A stretch of DNA of 64,000 nucleotides. It comes from Octopus vulgaris. Lineage: Eukaryota. Location of the stretch: NCBI GenBank assembly GCA_951406725.2, contig OX597842.1, forward strand, positions 16,492,001 through 16,556,000, given 5' to 3'. This document shows positions 17,101-38,100 of the stretch, piece after piece (the stretch's first letter is position 1; each line of letters starts with the position of its first letter). The position numbers are program-made.

Positions 17101-20100
17101 GCATGGTGAAATAGCTTATTGAAGAGGGGGGTTCAAAGAGTAGACACCTATAATGGTGGTGGGAGAAACGGCATCCGGTATAGTTGGAGCAAATATAGAG
17201 ATATCCGGTATTGGTGGTGGGGGTGGGTAGGGCGGGCGCGCCGCGAAGAATCGGCAGCCAATTTCTAATCAGCCCTGTAAGGGAGATAGATCTTAATATC
17301 TATAACGATAACTAGTGAATTATACAGAATATGCAAAAACGAGGCGAGGCTGAAATAGTAAACAGAGTGGCGACTAGGGGGATCAGAATAATAATAATTA
17401 ATAAATAATAATAATAAATAGAGATACGGATGAATTAAAGTTCAAAGATTTCTTATCTTGAGATCACTTCGTTTACGGACAGACTTGGCAAAAGGAATTC
17501 GGAATCAAGAATGAGGCAGTTTACTAGCTTAAGTATGCATAGCCATGGCGGGTGGTAGGAAGAGAGGAGTCCAGACAGACGACAATGTAAAAAGAGGGGG
17601 AGAGAAGGGAAGAGAAAAACCCCGCGAAGAATCGGCAGCCAATTTCTAATCAGCCCTGTAAGGGAGATAGATCTTAATATCTATAACGATAGCTAGTGAA
17701 TTATACAGAATATGCAAAAACGAGGCGAGGCTGAAATAGTAAACAGAGTGGCGACTAGGGGGATCAGAATAATAATAATTAATAAATAATAATAATAAAT
17801 AGAGATACGGATGAATTAAAGTTCAAAGATTTCTTATCTTGAGATCACTTCGTTTACGGACAGACTTGGCAAAAGGAATTCGGAATCAAGAATGAGGCAG
17901 TTTACTAGCTTAAGTATGCATAGCCATGGCGGGTGGTAGGAAGAGAGGAGTCCAGACAGACGACAATGTAAAAAGAGGGGGAGAGAAGGGAAGAGAAAAA
18001 CCCCGCGAAGAATCGGCAGCCAATTTCTAATCAGCCCTGTAAGGGAGATAGATCTTAATATCTATAACGATAGCTAGTCATGAATTGATAAACAGACAGT
18101 TAATAGCTATAAAATTTTTTCAATTCTCAGTTATTTTAGCCAAAAGATGTAGCAGAATTTTGAAAAGACTCTGTTAAACCAATGACAATGATGATAATAT
18201 ATAAAAAATATGGATATAAATTCTTTAAAATCCAACTATGCCAATGCAGTCAGTGAAAGTTTTCTAACAGGGCTGCTGAACAGAATAATTTCTCTTCTTC
18301 TTGAGAGAGTTGTAGCCGAAGACAGAGAGTCCGACAAGGATTGCAGCAATGATTACGACAGCAATGATTACGACAGCAATGATTCCGAAAATCTCAAGTG
18401 TACTGTAGGGTCTTGATCCATCATCTTCAGTTTTCGGATCTGCAATTGATGAACAATAAAATATACAGCTACATTTATATATTTGTTTTACAAGAATTTT
18501 GATGTGAAATCGTGTGTTGAAACAGATATTGTTGTATTTCGGAATGGTCATTTTGCCAGTTTAGCCAATAATGACTTACCGTTAGTAAGGAGATACACAA
18601 ATAAGAAAGAAGAAAGCAAAGGACCACTGATGAGGTCACAGGAGTGTGAGGAAAGAACTCTGGCTGAAATAAGATAAAGATTAATGTAAAAAATAAATAA
18701 CACTGAAGCAAAATAACACCAAATATATAGTGCGTGTGTTTTTATTGGCTAAACTGGCAAAATGATCATTCCTAAATACAAAAATATATAGCCTTTGTTT
18801 TCAATAAAAAATAGTAATATCTCCCAAGCTTGACCGTTTTCATATTAACCTATTAAAAAATACTTTCGTTTCTATTATACAAATTCCAGTTTAAAGTGAT
18901 CTAAAGGAAAAGTCCCCATGAAAATTTCCAGTAACACTATGTTGCACACATTAGCTTGGTAATGACAAGGTTATTTTACTAAAATCTTCATAATTTTCAA
19001 AATTTATTCATAAGGTCGGTCGGTCGGAACACCCTTCAGTCACAACACAGACCATGGGATTGCACCTAGAATGTTACCTTCCTAGTCGCAAGTCTGGGCA
19101 AGGTTGTTTGTGGAAAACTAGCAGTTGCCCATGCATACCTGCCTCTCCTCTCCACACCACTGATGTTATCCAAGGGAAAGGCAAAGGGGCCGATACAGCT
19201 TCGCACCAGTGACGTTGCAACTCATTTCTACAGCTGAGTGAATTGGAGCAACGTGGAATAAAGTGTCTCGCTCAAGGACACAACATGCAGCCTGGTCCGG
19301 GATTCAAGCTCACAACCTCACGATCGTAAGCTCGATGCTCTAACCGCTGAGCCATGCACCTTCATACAAAAGCAATGTATTTCAACAGAAATATGGTAAG
19401 GAATAGGTTAACACACACCAGTATCCGAGAGGAGTATATTTAAAAGATTAGCTAATCCCCTTCAGATCAGTTCATCATTTAGAAGGGTTATATAGGATAT
19501 GCAAAGTGGATTGACTTTCTTATTCTAGCACAGAAATGCAAGGTCAACAGATCAGTCTATGATTTAGAAGGGTTATATAGGATATGCAAAGGGGTTTGAC
19601 TTTCTTATTCTAGCACAGAAATGCAAGGTCAACAGATCAGTCTATTATTTAGAAGGGTTATATAGGATATGCAAAGGGGTTTGACTTTCTTATTCTAGCA
19701 CAGAAATGCAAGGTCAACAGATCAGTCTATTATTTAGAAGGGTTATATAGGATATGCAAAAGGGATTGACTTTCTTATTCTAGCACAGAAATGCAAGGTC
19801 AACAGATCAGTCCATGCTTTAGAAGGGTTATATAGGATATGCAAAGGGGATTGACTTCGTTATTCTAGCACAGAAATGCAAGGTCAACAGATCAGTCCGT
19901 GATTTAGAAGGGTTATATAGGATATGCAAAGGGGTTTAACTTTCTCATTCTAGCACAGAAATGCAAGGTCAACAGATCAGTCCATGATTTAGAAGGGTTA
20001 TATAGGATATGCAAAGGGGATTGACTTCGTTATTCTAGCACAGAAATGTAAGGTCAACAGTTCAGTCTATGATTTAGAAGGGTTATATAGGATATGCAAA

Positions 20101-35100: not shown

Positions 35101-38100
35101 AGTTGGATTGTGGTGGAAAATCAAAAATGTTCCAAAATTTTCTTCCATAAAATGCATCATTTCTAAAGCTCTGCTAAAAACAAAATTGGAAAAATCCCTA
35201 CTGAAACAAAGAAAATCCACCTTACGTGAGTGACCTATTCCAGACCTCTGTGCACTTGAGTAAGATTGCCTTAACAAAAATATCCTACCCCACTTATTTT
35301 AACCTCTCAGCACCTGGTATAAAGCCACCACCTTCACTGCTATGCTCTTCGGTCGGGGCTTTTTCCTTCCGCTTCCTTTGTCTTTATTGTTACTAGGCGA
35401 CCTACTAGTGTTGGTGCCTGGCTCTAGTCTGATCTGGCAGAGTTTCTATAGCTGTTTGCCCTTCCTAAACACCAACCACTCCGTGAGTGTAGTGGATGCT
35501 TTTTATGTGCCAGGGGAGGCTCGCAACGGCCACGATCAGTTGGTGGTTTTTACGTGCCACCGACATGGAAGCCAGTCAAGGCGGGGCTGGCATCGGCCAC
35601 GTACAGATGGTGCTTTTTACATGCCACCAGCACAAGTGCCATAAGTGATGATGACAAACATCATAACCACAATCCTATTAAGAACGACTGTAATAATCGC
35701 AGCTACATGGTAACCAAATGAGTGGTGGTGCAATGAAGAAAAGCAGCCACTACATGTGGTAAAGTGGTGGGTGCTAGGAGGGCCATGAAGCAATAGAAGG
35801 CTTGCCAATGCATGGAATGGAGTTCACTACAATGCTGTGGCTTGTTGGATCCATAGCAGAATTGAAGGTGTCAGTCCTATATGGACCCCCACAAACCATC
35901 ATGACCCTGGTCGAAAACCACTGTTGCAGTACATTCCCTGATGTGCATTTTTGGCTCTTTAGCCTTTCTCAAAGGTCAAATTAAAAATTTAAAGAAATCA
36001 AAAGTCAAAAGATTGGCTAAAAGTTATGAGTTAAGGGAAAGAAATAGAAGACAGAATTGAAAAGGTAATGTCTAGGAGAGAAAAGGTTTGTTAATCCACT
36101 TACCAATTTCGGTGATTTCCTTAGGATACGTATTTGTGAAAACTGTAAAAAATGAAAACAAAAACGTTTGATTTTAAGATGATATAATTCAAAATAATGT
36201 GAATAAAAGAACATTATATTTCACAGTAATCTGATTGCTAAAGGATTAAGCCAGCCATATCTGTTTTATGTTTGAACTAGCCACATCCACCCTCTCACAC
36301 CTACCCTACAATGTCAGTCTAAAAATAAACAAGTCTAAAAATAAACAATCACATCATCAAAATGTCAAAACTACAAGATAATGAATGATTAATTCAAAAA
36401 CCAGGAGGGAGGAAGTAGGTAGCTTAATGTGGGTGTGTTGACCCAAGGAGGGGTAAGAAGAGATAGCCAGATGAGGAAGATGGAGGTAGGGTGATCAGGG
36501 TATTGAAAGAAGTAGAAGTGGAAAATTGGGAGATGAGTGGGAGGTGTGAGAGGAAAAGTATTTTCAAGGGTGGTCATTGTTGGGTATGACAATAGATGTT
36601 AATAGTTAGGGATGGTGGCACTATAGAACTAAGGGAAATTGGAAAGGTGGAAGATGGGAGAGGCGAGTATTAAAGGGAGAGAAAGGGTCCACTTACAGAT
36701 GCTAGTAGTGTAATAAAGGAGAAATCTGAAAGATGAAGATGGGTCGGCGGCACATCAAAGTACAGAGGTATGTAGACATGTATGAGTAAATAGAGGGAGT
36801 TGGTAGCAACAGTAGGAGTAGGTAGTACTAAGTGGTTTGGTTCTACTTGAAGAAGAAGATCAGATAAGAATTCAAAGTGTGAGGACGGGGTGGTTGTAAA
36901 GATGTATGTGCTGGGTAGCAGGAATGTGCAAAGGTAATCTTTAAAAATATTTAGAATGGGGGAGGTGGTAATAGTGGAAGTGATATGTTGTTAGTACAAC
37001 AAAGTTGTAACTTAAGGTTAATCATAAAGAATTACATAGATTTGACATAATAGGCAAACAAGGACTAGGTTCTGTGTTTACATGAGAGGATTACATCTGA
37101 AAATTTATTAAATAATTAGGGGTTGTGGTTTTGAAAGATAGTGGATGATTCTCATACACAGTGCCAAGATTAGTGTTGAAAGGGGTGGGTGGGTGTGAGG
37201 GCTCACTGTTAATTAACCAGGGTAGAATATAGGGAATGTTTTGGGACCTGAGGTTTTGTATACAATTTGTTAATGAGGTAGTTAATTTATAAGTTGGATT
37301 GTGGTGGAAAATCAAAAATGTTCCAAAATTTTCTTCCATAAAATGCATCATTTCTAAAGCTCAGCTCAAAACAAAATTGGAAAAATCCCTACTGAAACAA
37401 AGAAAATCCACCTTACGTGAGTGACCTATTCCAGACCTCTGTGCACTTGAGTAAGTTTGCCTTAACGAAAATAAGTTATGGAAAAAATAAAATAAAATAA
37501 AAATAAAACTTACCAGCACATGTCATTAAGAGTAAGAGGACCAACTTGAAAAGGTCCATCATCTGAAAAAATAATTTTCAAAAGCTGTAAGATAACAAAG
37601 CTTATAGCCCAGGGTCCGCTGCCTGTCAGGCTGAGAAAAACAAACGGTCACAATATCATCAGTCACTCTTTAATAGATTTATGGTCGAGACTCTGGCAGT
37701 GGAGATCTTATTCTTAACTATTTCAAATACTATATATTTCTTTACTACCCACAAGGGGCTAAACACAGAGGGGACAAACAAGGACAGACAAACAGATTAA
37801 GTTGATTACATTAACCCCAGTGCGTAACTGGTACTTAATTTATCGACCTTGAAAGGATGAAAGGCAAAGTCGACCTCAGTGGCATTTGAACTCAGAACAT
37901 ACCGGCAGACGAAATACGGCTACGCATTTCGCCCGGCGTGCTAACGTTTCTGCCGGCTCACCCTACTCGTGAAACTGATGTATCCAGATATGGTGAGAGG
38001 TCAGACGCAACACACATCCAAGCCTCAAATCTGAAGTTGGTGCCAGAATATCAAGAAATGGACAAACTAATTATTAAGTAAACATATAGGCGCAGGAGTG

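Follow-up and report, generated by a model that had tools for sequence, protein, structure and literature searches.

A fairly likely two-domain Ig-like membrane protein gene of Octopus vulgaris and its uncharacterised family

Killer-cell (KIR), leukocyte (LILR) and Fc receptors of vertebrates are encoded by a leader exon, a mini-exon and Ig exons joined in phase 1; they form tandem arrays, have fast-evolving ectodomains and vary in the number of their domains. Ig domain exons are, more generally, typically bounded by phase-1 introns. A different layout is found in the clustered protocadherin and UGT1A loci, where variable first exons are joined to shared constant exons. In yet other families, such as snake venom PLA2 and conotoxins, coding exons diverge more than the adjacent introns between paralogues. 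Cephalopod genome papers emphasise protocadherins, zinc fingers and GPCRs, and, to our knowledge, no diversified Ig-type recognition receptors are known in cephalopods.

The locus described here lies on the minus strand of a 64-kb window of Octopus vulgaris DNA (the whole stretch analysed, which contains no N letters). The original prediction was of leader/micro-exon/Ig modules followed by a common transmembrane (TM) exon, and all of its exons were found in place on the minus strand, with their AG/GT sites and phase 1 at every junction (Table 1). The 49 nt that it gave for leader B are obtained only by counting from the AG at 29456-29455; the frame opened by the ATG, 29451..29406, has 46 nt. 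Exon junctions and tblastn bear out two modules, A and B, and a single minus-strand TM exon: because tblastn with family proteins detected no second minus-strand TM exon in the window, module A is left without one of its own. Both 249-nt exons and every 39-nt exon are of phase 1-1, so that modules can be duplicated, strung together or skipped with the frame kept, and, having their own acceptors, micro-exons and Ig exons would behave as internal cassette exons. The TM/tail exon (18439..18264) encodes a short stalk, a hydrophobic span (mean hydropathy 3.5 in the best 19-aa window) and a 15-aa tail.

Table 1. Exons, repeat units and paralogous remnants of the locus, in positions of the 64-kb window
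Feature	Position	Strand	Description
Exon 1, coding part, of P0002	54981..55005	-	25 nt, ATG start, donor gtatgt; six-frame search
Exon 2 of P0002	40213..40289	-	77 nt, tttcag/gtatgt; tblastn of P0002, P0009
Leader A	37514..37562	-	49 nt, phase 1, ttttttcag before, gtaag after
Micro-exon, unit U4	36104..36142	-	39 nt, phase 1-1, cag/gtaag; used in P0002
Micro-exon, unit U3	33916..33954	-	39 nt, cag/gtaag, AG/GT intact, in frame; absent from P0002
Micro-exon, unit U2	31711..31749	-	39 nt, cag/gtaag; absent from P0002
Domain A exon (Ig-like)	29761..30009	-	249 nt, phase 1-1, cag/gtaag; P0002 residues 65-146
Leader B	29406..29451	-	46 nt from ATG, donor gtaag, MAKW type; skipped in P0002
Micro-exon, module B (unit U1)	28030..28068	-	39 nt, cag/gtaag; bridges domains A and B in P0002
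Domain B exon	24151..24399	-	249 nt, phase 1-1, cag/gtaag; Ig I-set-like fold
TM/tail exon	18264..18439	-	ttgcag before, stop TAG at 18266-18264
Units U2, U3, U4	30474..37513	.	three ~2.19-kb tandem intron units, one micro-exon apiece
Remnant of paralogous domain exon	537..647	+	111 nt, in frame, without domain core
Paralogous second TM/tail exon, oriented tail to tail	4757..4902	+	block alignment with minus-strand copy

The gene at this locus is already annotated publicly, as P0002 (300 aa, 'Hypothetical predicted protein [Octopus vulgaris]'), but is uncharacterised. P0002 maps onto the locus exon by exon, beginning with two exons past the interval originally noted (55005..54981 and 40289..40213) and continuing with leader A, micro-exon 36142, domain A, micro-exon 28068, domain B, which is identical in 83/83 residues, and the TM exon. 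The first of the two upstream exons, to which a six-frame search of the window assigned the first residues of the protein, is probably 5' UTR in reality; the second is a 5' exon common to P0002 and a paralogue model, P0009 (tblastn, 89% over 36 aa). Leader A is of the MDIL type, with a hydrophobic, signal-peptide-like start and its own acceptor, and accounts for P0002 residues 35-50. Since P0002 begins 34 residues ahead of this signal-like segment, its start codon is doubtful, and the true one would lie in leader A.

We consider it fairly likely that the interval is most of one O. vulgaris gene of about 36.7 kb, running from 55005 to 18264 on the minus strand and encoding a two-domain type I membrane protein. 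Its main product would consist of the leader A signal peptide, two divergent, tandem Ig I-set-like domains, with A preceding B and each having one 39-nt and one 249-nt exon, one TM span and a tail of 15 residues. The second of the two splicing options offered by the original prediction, 29761>28068 leading to a two-domain receptor, agrees with this gene model. Leader B would normally be skipped; it resembles the leaders that open the models of relatives and so may serve as an alternative start, giving a B-only one-domain protein. In the EVidenceModeler pipeline behind P0002, ab initio predictions were combined with assemblies from Iso-Seq and RNA-seq (PMC10700109), so that the join of A to B may be prediction only. 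Against the two-domain reading stands also P0003, which models the orthologue of domain B in O. sinensis and carries a different downstream module.

In the first of the two options, the locus would work as a variable/constant one of the protocadherin/UGT1A type, with starts at leader A or leader B and each module spliced to the shared TM exon, to make one-domain receptors. The octopus modules do have their own leaders, each with an ATG, a hydrophobic core and a phase-1 donor, upstream of a 3' exon shared by both, the one minus-strand TM/tail exon; the junction 29761>18439 would stay in frame, as all phases are 1, and models of relatives use alternative leaders. P0002, the only model of the locus, however, connects A to B, and micro-exon 28068 and Ig B would need skipping in spite of their normal acceptors. 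Leader A is internal in P0002, with an acceptor and two exons upstream, and is not a first exon; serial modules are found in every mapped relative. The variable units are thus not single acceptor-less first exons, as each module has three exons, with internal acceptors, and is used serially in public models; the shared exon, unlike the constant exons of the vertebrate loci, supplies only a TM span and a short tail, and there is no homology. All this makes the variable/constant layout improbable as the main reading, but something of its spirit is retained: O. sinensis isoform models vary in the Ig exons that they skip and in the leader, or leader+domain module, that they use, which suggests that loci of this type are combinatorial by way of nested starts and exon skipping.

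Vertebrate leukocyte receptors share with the octopus gene the succession of leader, mini-exon and Ig exons, all in phase 1, except that in octopus a mini-exon precedes every Ig exon and not the first alone; with its family they share tandem arrays, fast-changing ectodomains and variation in domain number. The likeness concerns gene organisation and mode of evolution. Inspection by eye of the 15-residue tail found no ITIM or ITAM, its one Tyr being unfit for the ITIM pattern, and no charged residue was seen in the best 19-residue window of the TM span or in the remaining hydrophobic stretch. At the cell surface, the protein would act in binding or recognition and would itself have no signalling motifs.

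The 83-aa domain encoded by the 249-nt exon is predicted to be an Ig I-set-like sandwich. AlphaFold2, given a 24-row alignment (A1), produced a model of seven strands with pLDDT of 92.4 and pTM of 0.82, and the best Foldseek matches listed from PDB (ranks 1-50) are all Ig domains, so the Ig beta-sandwich expected from the outset is borne out among them. Titin M1 (E 8e-4), obscurin Ig32 (TM 0.72), twitchin Ig26 and NCAM2 Ig1 share the seven-strand sandwich with TM-scores of 0.59-0.72, at only 11-18% identity. The nearest neighbours in ESM Atlas are unnamed mollusc clusters, followed by V-set/I-set clusters. Sequence profiles miss this fold: neither domain exon of the window matched any Pfam family at E<=10, I-set was sub-threshold in 4 of the 9 family proteins scanned (the best, a relative, scored 23.6 against a cut-off of 23.7 bits), and the only match in a PDB profile search was NCAM1, with E of 0.62.

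Five residues, W23, E31, C32, C36 and W65, are invariant in alignment A1, both window domains included, and W23 corresponds to the invariant Trp in the third strand of I-set domains. The first canonical Cys of these domains is, however, missing in octopus: residues 7-13, the predicted strand where the canonical B-F disulfide would be anchored, include no Cys in any of 48 family domains, and column 6 has a Cys in 4/48. In its stead there is a C-x3-C motif, in which C32 is invariant and C36 near-invariant over the 48 domains, plus a facultative, co-varying second pair, both members of which are present in 25 domains and absent in 19, with 4 mismatched.

A search of 1.84 billion representatives with exon translations returned 30 matches at E<=1e-3, 20 of them at E<=1e-10 (best E 1e-127), of which we read 24/30 as family members; that the translations match public proteins makes the exon structure more than a chance pattern. 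The 21 relatives that bear names are without exception Octopus proteins labelled 'uncharacterized' or 'hypothetical', including O. sinensis LOC115225115, LOC115225116 and LOC115225442, O. bimaculoides LOC106869802, LOC106882146 and A0A0L8I036, and additional O. vulgaris 'hypothetical predicted proteins'. Given that none of the 21 is named by function, and that no mention of the LOC identifiers was found in the literature searched, the suspicion of an uncharacterised family is supported. To judge from sequence, its members are membrane proteins encoded in tandem arrays, known to date from the genus Octopus alone.

The relatives have a domain of about 82 aa preceded each time by a 13-aa linker, and the same types of leader and TM/tail exon. 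Nine mapped models, P0002 among them, contain from one to five serial modules of linker and domain; in five full-length ones, P0002 again being one, a single TM/tail segment closes the protein, and P0004, P0005, P0006 and P0013 have two to three domain copies and a hydrophobic terminal segment. MAKW leaders open the models P0034 and P0007 and come after an upstream extension in P0009. Leader B is 71% identical to the P0007 leader over 14 aa (tblastn, E 0.008), which in P0007 is spliced to an inner module's micro-exon. Domain B has 96% identity to the first domain of LOC115225442.

Modules A and B would have arisen by tandem duplication of a segment that began 7 nt ahead of the leader ATG and ended about 300 nt beyond the Ig exon. 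The two sets of flanks can be aligned as far as a point 7 nt ahead of the ATG of leader B and diverge beyond it, which puts leader B at the junction, 7 nt past the breakpoint; the duplication would have left it stranded, with domain A on one side and micro-exon 28068 on the other. Tandem repetition of a 2.19-kb unit would later have multiplied the micro-exon on the upstream side of domain A. Units U2-U4, spaced at 2188-2191 nt, are paralogous to U1 (26778-29405, with micro-exon 28068) at 91-95% identity. The three micro-exons predicted for module A are indeed present and intact, but they are tandem-repeat copies and not independent elements; the U2 copy (31749..31711) has the same sequence as 28068..28030, and the only one taken up by P0002, that of U4 (36142..36104), differs from the other three at 8-9/39 nt, with flanks differing by about 2.5%. 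On the plus strand, the domain remnant at 537..647 has flanks that match those of A and B at 89-93% identity.

Near-equal unit lengths, 2188-2191 nt, could also be produced by an assembly artefact, in which collapsed or duplicated haplotypes imitate repeated modules. This is highly improbable: the unit copies differ by 5-9% and contain indels, the domain exons are 16.5% apart, in our judgement too far for a duplicated haplotype, and both modules are used by a public protein model.

Exons of this locus diverge 3-10 times more than the introns adjoining them. Ig exons A and B differ at 41/249 positions against 25/490 in flanking intron (P 9e-7), and leaders A and B at 24/46 against 31/300 (P 3.5e-10). 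The minus-strand TM exon differs from its plus-strand copy (4757..4902) at 31/146 positions, that is, 79% coding identity, with 30 more positions gapped, against 7/300 in flanking intron, the upstream intron being 98% identical. The pattern resembles that of snake venom PLA2 and conotoxins; those, however, are secreted toxins, whereas in octopus the signal peptide and the TM exon are fast too. The coding sequence may be under diversifying selection, but dN/dS of A against B is 1.28, near 1, which neutral drift would fit as well, and dS, 0.149, exceeds the intron divergence of 0.05, for which plain positive selection would give no account. Homogenisation of introns by gene conversion may be an alternative source of the contrast. 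If the contrast does reflect selection, this is a clear case of accelerated exon evolution in a receptor, signal and TM exons included.

Domain A is, by its residues, an outlier within the Octopus family. It lacks the first Cys of the pair that co-varies in 44/48 domains and so has an unpaired Cys; it has no N-glycosylation sequon, is changed at 4/9 near-invariant positions, and has 8 residues that are not present in any of 46 other domains. Its branch is 0.34 long, compared with 0.027 for domain B, and its closest match among the retrieved proteins is 68%. An atypical domain with no close orthologue among these proteins could be decaying: module A would then be a partial duplicate, P0002 a prediction artefact, and the working gene, for a one-domain protein, would comprise leader B, micro-exon 28068, domain B and the TM exon. 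The intactness of leader B, of the type that opens relatives' models, fits this, as does P0003, which begins inside the domain-B orthologue and has no domain A. However, module A retains its reading frame and every splice site, alternate core positions in the first strand of domain A are still hydrophobic while the intervening ones have changed, and it is leader A, not leader B, that has the conserved 5' exon upstream of it. Nor can neutral decay yield a difference between A and B exons that is three times the intron difference. We therefore regard decay as rather unlikely; if true, the locus would represent ordinary rearrangement in a young gene family.

With the two-domain gene as the favoured reading, the combination of an Octopus-only tandem family, an Ig fold missed by profiles, variable domain number, many predicted isoforms and fast exons makes for a concrete lineage-specific recognition candidate, with immune, allo-recognition, gamete or neuronal roles as the candidate functions. 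More speculatively, and with considerable doubt, this may be an octopus-restricted Ig-like receptor system, in which a tandem gene array supplies a varied surface repertoire for immune, self/non-self or gamete recognition. Such a repertoire would draw on serial, skippable phase-1 modules, on nested alternative leaders, and on exons that diverge several-fold faster than introns. If true, it would be an independent invertebrate counterpart of the diversified Ig receptor families.

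The exons that the original prediction placed between 37562 and 18264 were all recovered at those places on the minus strand, and all junctions of the set are in phase 1. The length of leader B needs amendment: the 49 nt first assigned to it are reached only if the exon starts at an AG three bases before the ATG. The window sequence contains no N, and tblastn of family proteins against it found no additional domain exon and no second TM exon on the minus strand. Domain exons A and B are 67% identical at the protein level, and the TM exon encodes a hydrophobic span (mean hydropathy of the best 19-residue window, 3.5) and a tail of 15 residues. 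A 15-nt unit is repeated three times inside this exon (18344-18388), where the span is longer than in a plus-strand paralogue lacking 12 nt at that place.

Exons of the minus-strand gene in window coordinates, and their order in the public gene model P0002
Feature	Coordinates	Strand	Length and splice sites	Order in P0002
First exon of P0002	55005..54981	minus		1
Second exon of P0002	40289..40213	minus		2
Leader A	37562..37514	minus	49 nt; acceptor ttttttcag, donor gtaag	3
Micro-exon U4	36142..36104	minus	39 nt; cag / gtaag	4
Micro-exon U3	33954..33916	minus	39 nt; cag / gtaag	
Micro-exon U2	31749..31711	minus	39 nt; cag / gtaag	
Domain exon A	30009..29761	minus	249 nt; cag / gtaag	5
Leader B	29451..29406	minus	46 nt counted from ATG; donor gtaag	
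Micro-exon U1	28068..28030	minus	39 nt; cag / gtaag	6
Domain exon B	24399..24151	minus	249 nt; cag / gtaag	7
TM/tail exon	18439..18264	minus	176 nt; acceptor ttgcag, stop TAG	8

The locus has a public model, P0002 (300 aa, "Hypothetical predicted protein [Octopus vulgaris]"), which maps onto the window exon by exon, its domain B being identical to ours at 83 of 83 residues. According to PMC10700109, EVidenceModeler built the O. vulgaris models by combining ab initio predictions with protein alignments and with assemblies of Iso-Seq and RNA-seq data. P0002 skips leader B and micro-exons 33954 and 31749 and uses the junction 29761>28068. This is one of the two targets originally proposed for module A, the one giving a two-domain receptor; the other, a direct join to the TM exon, has no counterpart among the models. 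The first 34 residues of P0002, upstream of a signal-like segment, are probably translated 5' UTR, and the 5' exon at 40289..40213 is also read through in the model of a paralogue, P0009. Partial extra copies of this 5' exon sequence lie at 40499-40597 (-) and at 5258-5299 (+), the latter just beyond the TM exon of the plus-strand paralogue, as if another family member once began there. Exons 1 and 2 of P0002 are separated by an intron in which open frames of a LINE-like element lie on the opposite strand (40669-43072, plus), with an endonuclease (Exo_endo_phos_2) and a reverse transcriptase (RVT_1, E 1e-29).

The locus is best read as one gene, whose default predicted product has domains A and B in series followed by one TM span, because the sole model of the locus shows this arrangement, because the micro-exons and Ig exons carry normal acceptors, and because all mapped relatives are serial. 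All searches of the window protein were run exon by exon. A protocadherin-like layout, with each module spliced straight to the TM exon, is a less likely alternative: it would keep the reading frame, but must skip good acceptors and is without support in the models. Used as a 49-nt internal exon, leader B would, by our reading of the sequence, shift the frame and bring a stop in the next micro-exon; by analogy with the relatives P0007 and P0032, described below, it may be an alternative first exon of a B-only protein.

The position of leader B has an explanation in the history of the locus. Leaders A and B are followed by one and the same intron sequence (identity at 269 of 300 positions), the Ig block is duplicated with its flanks (29457-30195 vs 23846-24585, 91% match), and the flanks 3' of domains A and B can be aligned to within 7 nt of the leader B ATG, where they diverge. 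The tandem duplication therefore covered a segment that starts shortly upstream of the leader and ends about 300 nt beyond the Ig exon. Leader B thus results from the duplication of the module, which stranded it between domain A and the micro-exon that follows. The three micro-exons attributed to module A are present, yet the spacing and identity of the tandem units make them one micro-exon copied together with its intron: the region of approximately 30.5-37.5 kb is filled by three units of about 2.19 kb, spaced by 2188-2191 nt and 91-95% identical to one another and to the unit with micro-exon 28068. In our judgement, the 5-16% divergence among copies speaks against an assembly duplicate.

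The surroundings are rich in other repeats. An inverted copy of the 3' part of the gene lies tail to tail with it, 333-5146 (+) corresponding to 18078-20440 and 23997-24596 (-); within it, the domain exon is reduced to an in-frame remnant of 111 nt (537-647), the sequences on either side being 89-93% identical, a second TM/tail exon lies at 4757-4902 (+), and the copy continues past the left end of the window. Satellite-like arrays occupy 19463-20430, 1851-3742 and 17241-18078; the last intron contains 11.4 copies of an 85-bp unit, an array whose inverted counterpart in the paralogue is longer, and 2.2 copies of a 381-bp unit lie immediately beyond the 3' end of the gene. A 0.6-kb inverted repeat (24553-25168 / 25413-26014, 91% identical) is found in the intron that separates micro-exon 28068 from domain exon B. 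A dispersed, SINE-like repeat lies directly against the acceptors of the domain exons (24419-24576, 30052-30199), the plus-strand remnant included, and, judged by eye, part of the pyrimidine tract at these acceptors may come from its tail; further copies are found near 23202-23606, 38096-38500, 58468-58842, 62906-63317, 5582-5899 and 47574-47793. An Rfam scan of the window found no RNA family.

Pfam has no match to domain exon A or B at E<=10, and its weak, sub-threshold matches to the TM exon were taken as hydrophobic noise. A single-sequence AlphaFold2 model of domain B was unusable (pLDDT 48.3) and was replaced by one built from a 24-row alignment, which gives the anticipated Ig β-sandwich, with seven strands, pLDDT 92.4 and pTM 0.82. 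In a Foldseek search of the PDB, every one of the best matches listed (ranks 1-50, E 8e-4 to 7e-3) is an Ig domain; at the top stand those of the I-set type in titin, twitchin, obscurin and NCAM2, with TM-scores of 0.59-0.72. A sequence-profile search of the PDB gave a single, non-significant match. In multi-domain relatives, Pfam I-set comes barely below the cut-off (23.6 bits at best vs 23.7), as seen in 4 of 9 family proteins scanned, and the nearest ESM Atlas neighbours, taken as a lead only, are unnamed mollusc clusters, then V-set and I-set clusters.

The domain is not a canonical Ig. The alignment shows W23, E31, C32, C36 and W65 as invariant residues, and no cysteine falls within the strand predicted for residues 7-13. 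A second cysteine pair is optional: of 48 distinct domains, 25 have both members, 19 have neither, and 4 are mismatched (Fisher P 3e-9 for co-variation, without correction for relatedness of the domains). The 13-residue peptide of the micro-exon has the pattern Y-x-I-x-Q-x-G/E, conserved in relatives; we take it to provide the linker as well as the first strand, and each domain would then be split between exons of 39 and 249 nt.

With the domain B exon as query, an exhaustive HMMER search retrieved 30 proteins at E<=1e-3 (20 at E<=1e-10), of which we regard 24 as family members. The other six (P0024 and P0026-P0030) we take to be chance or composition matches to repeat-rich proteins, and they were left out of trees and counts; Pfam scans of four of them found bacterial-type PKD/HYR/Ig repeat families in three and HYR/Ig in one, and P0028 and P0030 were set aside by eye as repetitive-looking. 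Word-index searches for names gave significant matches for 7 of 15, 10 of 2091 and 8 of 692 candidates. The 21 distinct relatives that carry a name are all labelled "uncharacterized" or "hypothetical" and belong to O. sinensis, O. vulgaris or O. bimaculoides; these shallow searches gave no named relative from genera beyond Octopus, and the exhaustive library carries no names.

Nine models were mapped in detail, and their general plan is a leader followed by 1-5 modules of 13-residue linker plus domain; five are full-length with one TM/tail segment, one has a different C-terminus with no hydrophobic span, and three are truncated. Computed isoform models of single O. sinensis genes, with labels up to X16 and X8, differ by skipping of an Ig exon with its micro-exon kept, which leaves two linker peptides in a row (P0001 vs P0031; P0034 vs P0033), by a change of leader ahead of an unchanged first domain (P0033 has the MDIL type and P0034 the MAKW type), and by alternation of the entire 5' leader and domain module (P0032 vs P0001). 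In the unnamed record P0007, a MAKW leader is joined to the linker of an inner module. In the window, leader A is of the MDIL type and leader B of the MAKW type. P0003 (O. sinensis LOC115225442) joins the domain B orthologue to one more domain and has a TM/tail closer to the plus-strand than to the minus-strand TM exon, which could be an interspecies rearrangement or a chimeric model. P0023, in which C2H2 zinc fingers are fused to the Ig-like domain of this family, is probably a merged gene model.

Between paralogous copies within the window, coding exons are far more divergent than the adjoining introns.

Differences between paralogous copies in the window, in exons and in flanking introns
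Comparison	Exon	Flanking intron	Fisher P
Ig exon, A vs B	41/249	25/490	9e-7
Leader, A vs B	24/46	31/300	3.5e-10
Micro-exon U4 vs other three	8-9/39	14-17/575-586	3e-6 to 6e-5
Micro-exons U1, U2, U3 mutually	0-2/39	10-13/561-581	0.18 to 1
TM exon, minus vs plus-strand paralogue	31/146 + 30 gapped	7/300	

For domain exons A and B, dN/dS is 1.28 (dN 0.192, dS 0.149). Since dS is above the intron value, plain positive selection is not the entire explanation; conversion from unsampled paralogues, or homogenisation of introns, may have contributed. Conversion from a sampled paralogue is an unlikely source of the differences in domain A, as 8 of the 28 differing residues are absent from 46 other domains and domain A is not nested in the clade of any other paralogue. 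In a tree of 48 domains, which has few columns and many unresolved forks, domain A is sister (support 99/94) to the group of domain B, its 96% identical O. sinensis orthologue and the second domain of that model; the branch of domain A measures 0.34 and that of domain B 0.027.

Domain A has peculiarities that fit relaxed constraint, and with it the possibility that module A is dying. Domain A has lost the first cysteine of the co-varying pair and kept the second, has no N-glycosylation sequon where domain B has two, and departs from the family at M17, R19, S51 and D69, each at least 90% conserved. It carries the family majority residue at 8 of the 28 positions that distinguish the two domains, and domain B at 14; eight of its residues are shared with none of the 46 others, and the retrieved proteins include no orthologue more than 68% identical to it. 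We nevertheless consider decay improbable: the frame and all splice sites of module A are intact, divergence beyond that of the introns is not expected from neutral decay, and in the first strand the alternate positions remain hydrophobic while those in between change.

The locus and its relatives are already in public protein sets, solely as unnamed predictions; a literature search for the LOC identifiers of the relatives, with supplementary tables outside its scope, found no occurrence, and a keyword search found no title on such a family. We read them as a family of tandem-Ig type I receptors in which the Ig domain is non-canonical, each domain is split between two exons and the leaders are nested. 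We recognise no motif in the short tail, and the TM span has no charged residue; on this basis, we propose a binding or adhesion molecule that would signal, if at all, through partners. Because the family is known so far from one genus, arrayed in tandem, variable in domain number and fast-evolving in its exons, its role may be one of recognition under conflict or rapid turnover, for example in immunity, between gametes, or between self and non-self.
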